Shown here one piece after another: positions 19,774 to 22,944 of a stretch of 64,000 nt of DNA. The first letter of the stretch is position 1. Each line of letters opens with the position of its first letter. The notes beneath the pieces are model-generated. The model saw only the letters and a program-made list of their open reading frames with translations. It had not been told where the DNA came from and did not search any database. Both the position numbers and the translations under genes were made by a program. Location: the NCBI GenBank assembly GCA_021821785.1, contig JAKACD010000002.1:1629-65628 (forward strand), read 5' to 3'. Origin of the DNA: Thermoplasmata archaeon (GTDB lineage Archaea; Thermoplasmatota; Thermoplasmata; Lutacidiplasmatales; UBA184).

Positions 19774-21198
19774 GTGCCGGCAGGATCGACCCGCAAGAAG
19801 AGCCCGAGGAACGCCCGACCCGCCCCCCGACCCCGACCCGCCTCGCGGGGTCGCCGAGTCTACATGGTGACGGGCGGCGTCACAAAGTTCGCGAAAGCGC
19901 ATCCGGCCATGGACTTCCGCCTCATGGTGAAGCGCGCCTACGACTACGCGCTCAAGGGGATCCCCGGCTTGACGGCCGACCGCATCGACGGCAGCCGTAT
20001 TTCGTACTTCTCGGACCACTTCTCCCGCCAGCTCAAGGCGGCGAGCATGGTGCAGGACTACCTTGGGCTCAACCCGAAGGGATCGGTCCGCATCGAATGG
20101 GGCGGTGCGACGGGCGGCGAGTGCTTTCAGGCCGCGTACGAGGCCGTGGCGAGCGGACGGATGGACGTCTGCCTCGCGGCCGGCTACGAGACGATGAGCC
20201 GGGTCCCGACCTGGAAGGGGAACGAGTTCATCGCTCTCGCATCGGACACGAACTTCGACTTCCCGCTCGGCGGGTTCTATACCGGCTACTACGCCCTGAT
20301 GGTCGTCCGGCACATCTACGAGTACCTGCGGCAGCGCAAGTTCGCCCACATCAAGGATGAACGGGAGGCCCAGCGCCTCGCGATCGCCGAGGGCTCGCGG
20401 ATCATGAGCAAGGTCTCCGTGAAGAACCACCTGAACGCGCTCCACAATCCGTACGCGCAGTACCCGAAGCGCCTCACCGTGGACGATGTCCTTCGCTCGG
20501 AGATGATCAGCTACCCGATCACCCGCGAGCAGATCTGCACGATGAGCGATGGGGCGGCGGTCGCCGTCCTTTGCTCGGAGGAGCGGGCGAAGGAGTTCAC
20601 GGACAAGCCCGTCCGCATCATCGGGGTGGGCACGGGAACGGACACGATGCGGCTCGCCGACCGGCCGTTCGGCAAGGTGCCGTTGCTCCCCCACGAGCGG
20701 CCGCGCGACTACGAGGACCTCGAATACCCAGGGGTCCACTCCTTCCGGGCCGGGCGCGCCGCCGGGATCGAGGCGTACCGCATGGCGGGGATCACGCAAC
20801 CGGGGAAGGAGCTCGACTTCATCGAGCTGCACGACGCCTACGCGTCGAGCGAGATCCAGACGTACGAGGACCTCGGGGTGTGCAAGTATGGGGAAGGGTA
20901 CGACTTCGTCGAGCAGGGCGATCCGTTCCTCGAGGGGATCGACTACGGGTTCCCGACGCCCCGCGCGGGGACGATCCCGGTGAACCCCTCGGGCGGCCTC
21001 ATCGCCTGCGGCCACCCGGTCGGCGCGACCGGCCTCATGCAGGGGGTCTTCGCCTTCTGGCAGCTTCAGGGCACCATCCCGAAGCACTTCGGAGACCCGG
21101 CCCTCCAGCTCGACAACCCCAAACGCGGCGCGATCCACAGTCACGCCGGGACGGGTTCCAGCGTGACCGTTTCGATCCTGGAGCGGGGGTTCCGATGA
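19774..21198 (+). CDS. Thiolase-fold protein lacking the catalytic cysteines
   Basis: RVYMVTGGVTKF, ELHDAY, VNPSGGLIACGHPVGATG. The nucleophile motif reads IEWGGATGG instead of E-x-A-C-A-S-G. Confidence 0.88.
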   Translation: MPAGSTRKKSPRNARPAPRPRPASRGRRVYMVTGGVTKFAKAHPAMDFRLMVKRAYDYALKGIPGLTADRIDGSRISYFSDHFSRQLKAASMVQDYLGLNPKGSVRIEWGGATGGECFQAAYEAVASGRMDVCLAAGYETMSRVPTWKGNEFIALASDTNFDFPLGGFYTGYYALMVVRHIYEYLRQRKFAHIKDEREAQRLAIAEGSRIMSKVSVKNHLNALHNPYAQYPKRLTVDDVLRSEMISYPITREQICTMSDGAAVAVLCSEERAKEFTDKPVRIIGVGTGTDTMRLADRPFGKVPLLPHERPRDYEDLEYPGVHSFRAGRAAGIEAYRMAGITQPGKELDFIELHDAYASSEIQTYEDLGVCKYGEGYDFVEQGDPFLEGIDYGFPTPRAGTIPVNPSGGLIACGHPVGATGLMQGVFAFWQLQGTIPKHFGDPALQLDNPKRGAIHSHAGTGSSVTVSILERGFR

Positions 21199-21722
21199 GC
21201 GACCGACCCGCGACGTTCTCGAAGTTCCGGGACGTCCAGGCCGAGCTGGAGCGGAGCGGCGCGGCGATCTTCCGCGACGCGGACGGGGTCGAAAGCCTCG
21301 TCATCCGCTACCCGTACTCGATCTCGTACATCCACAGCTACGCGGAGGACTCCCCGTTCTTCCTCGGCCTCGCCGAGGGGCGGCTGAAAGGCTCGAAATG
21401 CCGCAAGCCGAAGTGCGGGTTCGTCTACGCGACGCCCCGGGGGCACTGCATGGTCTGCGGTGCGCCGACCGAATGGGTCGATCTGCCGAACCGCGGCCGG
21501 GTCCACTCGTGGACGACCTGCCACTTCGGCAGCGAGGCGTTCCTGAAGGAGACGCCGTACAACCTCGCGCTCGTCGAGTTCGACGGCGTCGGGAGCCTGC
21601 TCCTCGTCCGCCTGAAGGACTGCGTCGAGTCCGATGTCTACGTGGGGATGCCGGTCGAGGCCCGGTTCGACCCCAAGCCGAAGTACTCGGTCACCGACGT
21701 CTGGTTCGTGCCGAGCCGCTAA
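21195..21722 (+). CDS. DUF35 family Zn-ribbon/OB-fold protein
   Basis: LKGSKCRKPKCGFVYATPRGHCMVCG, GRVHSWT, PYNLALVEFD; ATGA-coupled to the thiolase-fold gene. Confidence 0.9.
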   Translation: MSDRPATFSKFRDVQAELERSGAAIFRDADGVESLVIRYPYSISYIHSYAEDSPFFLGLAEGRLKGSKCRKPKCGFVYATPRGHCMVCGAPTEWVDLPNRGRVHSWTTCHFGSEAFLKETPYNLALVEFDGVGSLLLVRLKDCVESDVYVGMPVEARFDPKPKYSVTDVWFVPSR

Positions 21723-22291
21723 CCGGGGCGGGGGGCCGGTTCGCCCTTCGGGGCAAGGCCGACGAGCGCGAGCACGTCGGCCTGGCCGCGTCCGATCTCC
21801 TCGGGCGAGATCGTATCGAGGTCGACGAACGCGAGTTCGGCCCAAGGCCCCTTCGGCGGCGGTCGGGCCGTGGGCCAACGGTACCGATAGACGAAATGAA
21901 GGTCCCAGTGCGGGCCGGTCGCCGGTGCGTTCGGCCGGACGTACGCCTCCGAATGGACCGAGAACCCTTCGCGGGGCGGGAGCGGGGCGCTGAGCTGCTC
22001 GCGCGCGATCCGCTCGGCCGACGTATCGGGGGACTCGAAGAACACTAGCTGGCTCGACGGGAGGAGCCACTGCGATCCGATCCGCTCCACGCGGCTCGGC
22101 TCGAGGGCGGCGATCTCGAACCAGGACGCGGTCGGGTCGAGCCGACCGAGGAGCACCTCGCGCTCCCGCCTGGGCGGGCGGATGACCAGATAGGTCGAGA
22201 GGCACATCCCGTCCTCCGGGACGACATAGTACCCGGGCCCCGGGGAGACCGAGCCCGGCCGAAGCCGGGTAAAACGACGGTCGGACGCCAT
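21719..22291 (-). CDS. NUDIX-like hypothetical protein
   Basis: WLLPSSQLVFFESPDTSAERIAREQL resembles a degenerate NUDIX box; HWDLHFVY. Confidence 0.55.
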   Translation of the reverse strand: MASDRRFTRLRPGSVSPGPGYYVVPEDGMCLSTYLVIRPPRREREVLLGRLDPTASWFEIAALEPSRVERIGSQWLLPSSQLVFFESPDTSAERIAREQLSAPLPPREGFSVHSEAYVRPNAPATGPHWDLHFVYRYRWPTARPPPKGPWAELAFVDLDTISPEEIGRGQADVLALVGLAPKGEPAPRPG

Positions 22292-22401: not shown

Positions 22402-22944
22402 ATGCAGGACTCGGAGTGGTTCGGTACCGTGGCGCTCGTGTTGGCGGTCGTGGTGGTCATCGGCGGAGGGTTCGCCATCGCGGCCGAAGGGGTACCGCCC
22501 GCGACGACGACCGTGGCGGTCTCGGTGAGCCACCTCAACCTCACGATCCAGATCAACGCGACGAACGGCATGCCCCAGTACACTCCGGCGAACTTCTCGG
22601 TCGCCCGGGGCGAGATCATCGTCACGATCGTCGATCAGGACGCTCCGGCGGCCTGGCCCGGGTGCGCCTGCAACGTGACCGGTACGCAGGGGAACGTCGA
22701 GTCGATCAACGGGAGCGCCCCGACCTCCCAGGTCAGCTGGACGACCGTCGCGCACACGTTCACGGTCCCGTCGCTCCACATCAACGTGCTCAGCCCCGCG
22801 CAGTCCACGGTGACGTTCACGCTCTGGCTGAACCAGACCGGTCAGTTCCCCTGGATGTGCATGGACCCGTGCGGGTCGAACGGCTACACCGGGGCCCCGA
22901 TGGGCGTGCCCGGCTACATGGCCGGCACGATGACGGTCTTCTGA
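22402..22944 (+). CDS. Membrane-anchored extracellular cupredoxin-like protein
   Basis: N-terminal TM helix, AHTFT, then C-terminal loop GQFPWMCMDPCG...PMGVPGYMAGTMTV. Confidence 0.75.
   Translation: MQDSEWFGTVALVLAVVVVIGGGFAIAAEGVPPATTTVAVSVSHLNLTIQINATNGMPQYTPANFSVARGEIIVTIVDQDAPAAWPGCACNVTGTQGNVESINGSAPTSQVSWTTVAHTFTVPSLHINVLSPAQSTVTFTLWLNQTGQFPWMCMDPCGSNGYTGAPMGVPGYMAGTMTVF

Follow-up and report, generated by a model that had tools for sequence, protein, structure and literature searches.

We analysed a 64,000-nucleotide stretch of Thermoplasmata archaeon DNA (hereafter the window; assembly GCA_021821785.1, contig JAKACD010000002.1, positions 1,629 to 65,628) and found in it a gene for a thiolase-fold protein that has lost both classical thiolase cysteines and is directly followed by a gene for a DUF35 protein. 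Conventional thiolase action is impossible for this protein, because no acyl-enzyme can form without the nucleophile Cys. Sequence and fold comparisons indicate an independent repurposing of the thiolase fold rather than membership of the Ltp2/Sal aldolase family. We tentatively favour, with a confidence that falls just short of even, an active enzyme acting non-covalently on a C-C bond of an acyl-coenzyme A (acyl-CoA), retro-aldol, hydrolytic retro-Claisen or reverse condensation chemistry being possible. This reading is preferred because the His-Asn-His set is kept, a Gly-Gly pair is invariant at the nucleophile site, new Ser-His and Arg residues are present, the protein is under strong purifying selection and its relatives occur in acyl-CoA contexts. 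The comparisons establish the fold, the replaced residues and how well they are conserved, the obligate pairing with DUF35 and, in other phyla, a link to genes of acyl-CoA metabolism; that the complex is catalytic, what single residues do, which reaction it carries out and on which substrate is what we infer from them.

Both classical cysteines are missing from the active site

The DNA at 20086-20130 translates as V-R-I-E-W-G-G-A-T-G-G-E-C-F-Q. A HMMER alignment to 6esq_A, the thiolase of Methanothermococcus thermolithotrophicus, placed Cys85 of that enzyme opposite the second Gly of EWGG, Gly84. This confirmed what an earlier, sequence-only reading of the window had proposed, namely that the nucleophile motif, IEWGGATGG, is devoid of Cys; the two glycine codons are GGC and GGT. 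The same alignment set EVHDCF opposite ELHDAY, and the C of HDCF is the second catalytic Cys of SCP2-type and archaeal-type thiolases (PMC12329534). Both classical cysteines are lost, the nucleophile being Gly84 and the Cys of HDCF being Ala328. Loss of the latter would not be decisive by itself, because some relatives that retain the nucleophile Cys also read HDAF.

Two further claims of the sequence-only reading held in part. ELHDAY and GHPVGATG had been described as kept, which is correct for GHPVGATG and for the His residues, but ELHDAY conceals the replacement of the second Cys by Ala. The His of HDxF and that of GHx have been named as thiolase motifs (PMC12960953), and both are present here, as His326 in HDAY and His387 in GHPVGATG. 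The C-terminal loop IHSHAGTG does lack Cys, as stated, but this has no diagnostic value, since Cys-bearing archaeal-type thiolases of the same genome also lack it there (THNVGGAG, AHNVGATG). Ser429 in this loop aligned with the Asn of the archaeal A-N-V-G-G loop, a position which we take to be that of the acid/base Cys of bacterial type II thiolases.

A sequencing error changing TGC to GGC at the nucleophile codon was ruled out by conservation across hundreds of homologs. We also rejected Cys90 of GGECF as a displaced nucleophile, a possibility raised in the earlier reading. This residue is unconserved beyond close relatives and lies inside the helix normally begun by the nucleophile (residues 86-99 of the predicted model), six residues into the helix after the nucleophile position; the Cys-less reading stands. 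The Trp of EWGG, which the same reading had singled out, is conserved in 119 of 120 close relatives but is replaced by Gly in Thermoplasmatales orthologs.

The altered site is conserved and under strong constraint

Alignment of 24 orthologs (37-90% identity) revealed 35 invariant residues, 16 of them in five catalytic loops that make up 43 of the 447 positions (odds ratio for enrichment 12, Fisher p 4e-9). These 16 are Gly83, Gly84, Glu324, Asp327, Pro375, Asn377, Gly380, Gly381, Leu382, His387, Gly390, Gly393, Ser429, His430, Gly432 and Gly434, and His326 is nearly invariant. Closer in, the whole E-W-G-G-A-T-G-G-E-C motif was found in 119 of 120 cluster representatives. Arg266 and the Gly at 83 are clade-specific. 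Also distinct from 6esq_A are His55 and Tyr142 (Phe in 6esq_A), and Tyr291-Pro292 fall within a segment that is gapped in that protein.

Within its lineage the thiolase-like protein is under strong constraint, almost at the level of elongation factor 1-alpha (EF-1alpha). Between the window genome and a related genome (L019) it was 85-88% identical, next to 92% for EF-1alpha and 90% for ribosomal protein S10; less conserved were citrate synthase (84%), topoisomerase I (81%) and ornithine carbamoyltransferase (69%).

The protein belongs to an ancient Cys-less clade

The best NCBIfam model for the protein was NF004982 (PRK06365, 'thiolase domain-containing protein'), matched over model positions 18-427 of 430 with 629 bits, which is below the curated cut-off of 695. 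Among 151 genomes of the phylum, 39 matched this model at E <= 1e-60, nearly always once per genome. Scores above the cut-off were restricted to one family of the same class (f4; genomes G073, G085 and G091), and none of the 15 genomes of another family of that class had a match in this sample. The above-cut-off members (L007-L009) are 54-65% identical to the window protein and share E-G-G-G-A-T-G-G, HSHAGTG and an adjoining DUF35 gene, whereas Trp82, Cys90 and a basic N-terminal tail are peculiar to the window lineage. The fetched orthologs as a whole are 40-65% identical to it, and all thirteen are directly trailed by a DUF35 gene; E-G-G-G-A-T-G-G and H-S-H-A-G-T-G were read in L007-L009 and L016.

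A search of 1.8 billion cluster representatives returned 145 matches at E <= 1e-30, 93 of them full-length. Cys was absent from the nucleophile position in 41 of these 93 (Gly 23, Asp 5, Pro 5, Ser 4, Ala 3, Glu 1). In a maximum-likelihood tree obtained by a quick search rather than a finished careful one, the protein fell in a clade of 28 representatives, all 28 Cys-less, with a support of 99 in the Shimodaira-Hasegawa-like approximate likelihood ratio test (SH-aLRT); other Cys-less groups arose separately in the same tree. Named members of the clade come from Atabeyarchaeum, Njordarchaeum, Thor-, Loki-, Odin- and Promethearchaeota, Bathyarchaeia, Methanolliviera, Thermoplasmata and Nitrospinota, and are labelled 'thiolase domain-containing protein' or 'acetyl-CoA C-acetyltransferase' in databases. 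Loss of Cys in this Gly-Gly clade is ancient. The earlier proposal that the protein is not an acetoacetyl-CoA thiolase of the conventional kind is upheld by the lack of a nucleophile Cys and by a Cys-less state that is both old and conserved. Literature searches retrieved nothing on a Thermoplasma thiolase complex or on thiolase-like proteins described as lacking the catalytic cysteine.

The closest structural relative is an archaeal thiolase, not Ltp2 or Sal

An AlphaFold2 model of the core protein, built with a 93-sequence alignment, reached a predicted local distance difference test score (pLDDT) of 96.9 and a predicted template modelling score (pTM) of 0.95. Foldseek ranked 6esq_A first (template modelling score 0.93, 29% identity), the ST0096 thiolase-like protein 4yzo third (27% identity), and Sal (9myr) and Ltp2 (6ok1) only 38th and 39th, with 21% and 20% identity respectively.

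The archaeal acetoacetyl-CoA thiolase complex 6ESQ/6ET9 is thus the best match by sequence (E 1e-37) as well as by fold. The window protein shares with it the HDxF His, the NPSGG Asn and the GHx His, and both systems have a separate DUF35 partner gene, the best match in the Protein Data Bank (PDB) for the window's DUF35 protein being 6esq_E. They differ in that Cys85 and HDCF of the thiolase are Gly and HDAY here, that the window protein has about 55 extra residues in four insertions as well as Ser429-His430, Arg266 and His55, and that no gene for 3-hydroxy-3-methylglutaryl-CoA (HMG-CoA) synthase adjoins the pair.

The sequence-only reading had drawn a parallel with the Ltp2-DUF35 complex. Gly occupies the nucleophile position in Sal, and its counterpart in Ltp2 is likewise reported to be Gly; both are steroid side-chain retro-aldolases that cleave a C-C bond of an acyl-CoA non-covalently and depend on a DUF35 partner (PMC12329534). 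With its thiolase fold, its Gly for the nucleophile Cys and its DUF35 partner, the window protein is a fair functional analogue of Ltp2-ChsH2 (PDB 6OK1) and Sal-Shy (PDB 9MYR). It is not a member of their family, however, as shown by its HDAY motif and by its low fold-search ranks and identities to them, the archaeal thiolase being far closer. The catalytic base of Ltp2 and Sal is a Tyr, the first position of YDHF/YDCY, and the second catalytic residue is Tyr344 in Ltp2 and Cys304 of YDCY in Sal (PMC12329534). This base Tyr is absent here: its position is His326 of HDAY, and Ala328 replaces the essential Cys304 of Sal. Furthermore, the DUF35 of Ltp2 and Sal is the C-terminal domain of a MaoC-type hydratase whereas the window encodes a free protein, and their steroid-catabolic context is absent.

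Other Cys-less proteins resemble the window protein in part. ST0096 of Sulfolobus tokodaii (PDB 4YZO) likewise has an archaeal-type thiolase fold without the nucleophile Cys, but it has Ser at that position and an HDMA motif, is only 27% identical and falls outside the Gly-Gly clade. The SCP2-type thiolase-like proteins TbSLP and mycobacterial TLP1 also lack the nucleophile Cys; TbSLP differs by its YDCF motif. Decarboxylating ketosynthase domains (KSQ and chain-length factor) have Gln for the active-site Cys, unlike Gly84 here.

Gene starts, DUF35 partner and neighbourhood

The genome of the window comprises 1.69 Mb with about 70% G+C, and its closest protein relatives are annotated as coming from Thermoplasmata metagenome-assembled genomes. 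The features of the locus are collected in Table 1.

Table 1. Features of the thiolase-like/DUF35 locus, in window coordinates.
Feature	Position	Strand	Evidence
Cys-less thiolase-fold gene	19774..21198	+	Pfam, NCBIfam, AlphaFold2 model, fold search
Basic N-terminal tail, ~30 residues, rich in Lys/Arg/Pro/Ser	19774..19863	+	homolog gene models
Core protein P0001 (447 residues)	19855-21195	+	Pfam Thiolase_C_1 and Thiolase_N
Gly83-Gly84 codons GGC GGT; Gly84 at the thiolase nucleophile Cys position	20101..20106	+	6esq_A alignment, reading of the DNA
Arg266, clade-specific and invariant; Ala in Cys-bearing relatives	20650..20652	+	ortholog alignment; pocket position by homology only
HDAY motif, counterpart of HDCF; His326 kept, second catalytic Cys replaced by Ala328	20830..20841	+	alignments; HDAY in 120/120 close relatives
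NPSGG...GHPVGATG segment; Asn377 and His387 retained and invariant	20983..21033	+	ortholog alignment
Clade-invariant Ser429-His430 in the H-S-H-A-G-T-G loop	21139..21144	+	ortholog alignment
ATGA stop/start overlap	21195..21198	+	thiolase-like frame ends ...GFR-TGA at 21196-21198; DUF35 ATG at 21195-21197
DUF35 partner gene (P0002, 175 residues)	21195..21722	+	Pfam zf-ChsH2 and OB_ChsH2_C; best PDB match 6esq_E
Zinc ribbon of the DUF35 protein: Cys69, Cys74, Cys85, Cys88 (C-x4-C ... C-x2-C)	21399..21458	+	translation and partner alignment

Both Pfam thiolase domains, Thiolase_N and Thiolase_C_1, match P0001. GTG 19774 and ATG 19864 are the only in-frame starts. The GTG is probably the true start and ATG 19864 the alternative, because close homologs bear the same kind of tail and no other in-frame start precedes ATG 19864; starting at the ATG would cut off the first beta-strand (R-V-Y-M-V). 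In many close homologs, with gene models of 462-499 residues, this tail of about 30 residues begins M/V-P-A/T-R and is constant in composition but variable in sequence. Gene models of more distant homologs (P0123, P0125, P0129, P0131, P0134) do not have it. Such a lineage-specific, disordered tail may bind another macromolecule.

The overlap of the thiolase-like gene with the DUF35 gene by ATGA, noted in the sequence-only reading, proved real, the stop codon sharing bases with the start codon, and it indicates that the two genes are probably translationally coupled. The partner, P0002, consists of an N-terminal Y-x-H-S-Y segment, a ChsH2-type zinc ribbon, an OB fold and a C-terminal T-D-V-W-F-V-P. 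By Pfam it is a free DUF35 protein without a hydratase domain. DUF35 partners of the clade, from six phyla, share Y-x-H-S-Y-[GA]-x-x-S-x-F-F at the N-terminus and T-D-V-[WY]-F-V-P at the C-terminus, and the DUF35 gene lies immediately downstream of the Cys-less gene in every examined locus that includes this DNA. Two database entries join the proteins: P0135 (752 residues) looks like a natural thiolase-like-DUF35 fusion, and P0124 (559 residues) like a frameshifted read-through of the ATGA junction.

Window genes flanking the pair encode a glyoxalase-fold protein, a 4HBT thioesterase, a helix-turn-helix protein that we take to be MBF1-like, a divergent argF, a convergent open reading frame without a family match and topoisomerase I. 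None is obviously related to the pair, whose immediate neighbours are argF and an unassigned open reading frame. Two open reading frames, at 22402-22944 (+, 180 residues) and 21719-22291 (-, 190 residues), had no Pfam or NCBIfam match; in the former, a hydrophobic stretch lies at the N-terminus, and the C-x-x-x-C...M pattern of its C-terminus is reminiscent of a cupredoxin-like copper site.

A decayed paralog linked to HMG-CoA synthase

A second Cys-less thiolase-like gene of this genome lies on another contig, between genes for HMG-CoA synthase and a DUF35 protein (L002; G000:C33:14990-18421), an arrangement that corresponds to the classical mevalonate trio of archaea. In this paralog and in its counterparts in four relatives (L026 of genome G025; L023, L024 and L025 of three family f4 genomes), the GHP His is also lost (GRP, GDP or GNP), and the nucleophile position varies across the five genomes between Gly, Asp and Thr. 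The adjacent HMG-CoA synthase keeps its own Cys motif, and type II thiolases of the bacterial kind (TIGR01930, >400 bits) are encoded in each of the five genomes. Since Cys and the GHP His are lost and type II thiolases are available, the HMG-CoA-synthase-linked thiolase subunit of this class looks like a dead scaffold, acetoacetyl-CoA being supplied by another thiolase. Unlike this decayed paralog, the window protein has kept the GHP His and the catalytic loops.

The same genome encodes three Cys-bearing archaeal-type thiolases and one type II thiolase, along with 7 acyl-CoA dehydrogenases, 11 enoyl-CoA hydratases and 3-4 3-hydroxyacyl-CoA dehydrogenases of beta-oxidation. At one further locus (L001; G000:C47:9908-13342), the gene of a thiolase that has its Cys (I-E-N-A-C-A-S-G, HDCF) precedes that of a 345-residue protein (open reading frame 1958-2995). 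The last ~135 residues of the latter form a DUF35 domain (6esq_E, E 6e-6), and the first ~200 match no family or structure. It recalls bacterial ACAT and inactive-HMG-CoA-synthase-DUF35 fusions (PMC12960953), although no similarity to HMG-CoA synthase was detected.

Gene contexts in other phyla link the clade to acyl-CoA metabolism

We read ten neighbourhoods from seven lineages for partner genes. The DUF35 gene alone was constant, and no constant third partner was found among them. An acyl-CoA dehydrogenase recurred in three of the ten, and a gene of the Beta_elim_lyase family in two lineages. In Nitrospinae (L052; contig JADFQL010000001.1, 7001-13290), an operon encodes in order a Cys-less thiolase-like protein, a 199-residue DUF35-like protein unrecognised by Pfam, 3-hydroxyacyl-CoA dehydrogenase, acyl-CoA dehydrogenase, enoyl-CoA hydratase and a 292-residue protein without a family match; with the first pair standing in for thiolase, these genes would make up a full set for beta-oxidation. 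The Methanolliviera pair is followed by acyl-CoA dehydrogenase, a CoA-transferase and a beta-keto acid cleavage enzyme (BKACE).

In Atabeyarchaeum (L050, 5150-8787), an acyl-CoA dehydrogenase gene adjoins a tandem of two distinct thiolase-like/DUF35 pairs, both Cys-less, and the first of these thiolase-like proteins has also lost the GHP His. Promethearchaeota showed an acyl-CoA synthetase, an FMN oxidoreductase, hydratases and further thiolase/DUF35 pairs; the Bathyarchaeia and Thorarchaeota neighbourhoods contained nothing informative. There was no support for dimerisation with a Cys-bearing paralog as seen with ketosynthase and chain-length factor, since the pair usually stands alone and the tandem neighbour in Atabeyarchaeum is Cys-less as well.

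Proposed mechanism and alternatives

We propose that the two genes produce a heteromeric thiolase-fold/DUF35 complex. The clade has lost its covalent nucleophile, Ala-Cys having become Gly-Gly, but keeps His326, Asn377 and His387, the residues of the thiolase site for CoA thioester binding and enolate stabilisation. Under this proposal a C-C bond beside the thioester would be made or broken with no acyl-enzyme intermediate. Most likely, a 3-hydroxy- or 3-oxo-acyl-CoA would be cleaved by a retro-aldol or retro-Claisen-type reaction in which water may serve as the nucleophile, and acetyl-CoA would be released. The cavity left at Gly83-Gly84, together with backbone amides, could hold the C3 oxygen of the substrate or a water molecule. 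The Ser429-His430 pair may take over the acid/base role of the lost Cys, and Arg266 may contact a substrate group that is polar or anionic. The translationally coupled DUF35 protein would clamp the dimer and help to shape the CoA/substrate cleft, as in solved DUF35 complexes. Isolated subunits of related complexes are insoluble.

Several observations weigh against an active enzyme of this kind. Strong conservation would also fit a purely structural or ligand-binding role. The protein does not have the base Tyr of Ltp2 and Sal, which makes the proposed acid/base residues guesses, and where Ser429, His430 and Arg266 lie relative to the pocket is deduced from homology of sequence. No metabolic gene is a conserved neighbour of the pair in Thermoplasmata, synteny with argF, the 4HBT thioesterase and topA being found only among close relatives. 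As for the Nitrospinae operon, its 3-hydroxyacyl-CoA dehydrogenase suits a 3-oxoacyl-CoA substrate better than a simple retro-aldol reaction, and in this subfamily the residue directly following the nucleophile position is a Cys.

The protein could instead be a non-catalytic pseudo-thiolase, serving as a scaffold or as a module that binds acyl-CoA and organises or regulates other enzymes, much as the thiolase and DUF35 subunits do in the archaeal HMG-CoA synthase complex; we consider this unlikely, though the strongest of the alternatives. Pseudoenzymes are classically marked by a lost nucleophile, and the HMG-CoA-synthase-linked paralog of this genome and its relatives, with Cys and GHP His both gone, is such a case. 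DUF35 proteins are known to serve as scaffolds, one of them acting in translation (PMC6996347), and both the basic, disordered N-terminal tail, which suggests macromolecule binding, and the lack of a conserved metabolic neighbour in Thermoplasmata fit this view. Yet the evident pseudo-thiolase paralog lets drift what the window protein retains, the catalytic loops being kept across phyla with Asn377 and His387 invariant and His326 nearly so. New invariant polar residues (Ser429-His430, Arg266 and His55) also argue against a mere scaffold, as does the Nitrospinae pair, which fills the thiolase slot of a beta-oxidation operon. That slot, in an otherwise complete operon, would also suit a true thiolase, either with Cys90 as the nucleophile, a residue present in 119 of 120 close relatives, or with CoA attacking a 3-oxoacyl-CoA directly and no acyl-enzyme being formed. 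We regard both variants as highly improbable. Orthologs at 55-65% identity have Leu, Ala or Asn instead of Cys90 while keeping every other residue of the site, and Cys90 sits well inside helix 86-99, away from the N-terminus where the nucleophile is found. The direct mechanism requires two CoA molecules in one site, which is without precedent, and the other thiolases of the genome, three archaeal-type and one type II, can do that job.

A carboxylated acyl-CoA, for instance malonyl- or methylmalonyl-CoA, might instead be decarboxylated through the kept enolate-stabilising His/Asn set, as in Cys-to-Gln ketosynthase domains and TbSLP, but this seems to us improbable. Condensing enzymes do use the His-Asn-His set for decarboxylation, and the invariant, clade-specific Arg266 could bind a carboxylate, but decarboxylating ketosynthases have Gln rather than Gly at the Cys position. 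TbSLP decarboxylates malonyl-CoA, although very slowly, whereas CtSal, which also has Gly there, has no malonyl-CoA decarboxylase activity (PMC12329534). Moreover, no acyl-CoA carboxylase or related gene was linked to the pair in the contexts examined. A bolder version of the preferred C-C bond enzyme, about as improbable as the decarboxylase, is that the Gly-Gly clade is a widespread thiol-free 3-oxoacyl-CoA C-C hydrolase, in which a cavity water activated by His387 would attack the substrate, and which would supply, in many archaea as well as some bacteria, the thiolase step of a variant form of beta-oxidation. It is put forward because the Nitrospinae operon and the Methanolliviera cluster with its CoA-transferase suggest a thiolase step.

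Significance

What is new here is the contrast with the decayed HMG-CoA-synthase-linked paralog of Thermoplasmata, the ranking of conservation against housekeeping genes, the Ser429-His430 and Arg266 signature and the basic tail. Thousands of archaeal genes of this clade, and some bacterial ones, are annotated "acetyl-CoA C-acetyltransferase". Under this label they enter reconstructions of mevalonate, fatty-acid and butyrate pathways as thiolases, in Asgard archaea, Bathyarchaeia and Thermoplasmata, an assignment that cannot be right. Conservation close to that of EF-1alpha in the Thermoplasmata lineage implies that the function matters to the cell. Identifying the reaction would add a third active-site solution to the thiolase-fold/DUF35 platform, after the thiolases and the Ltp2/Sal aldolases, and would correct pathway models, including arguments on Asgard fatty-acid metabolism that count thiolase/DUF35 pairs.

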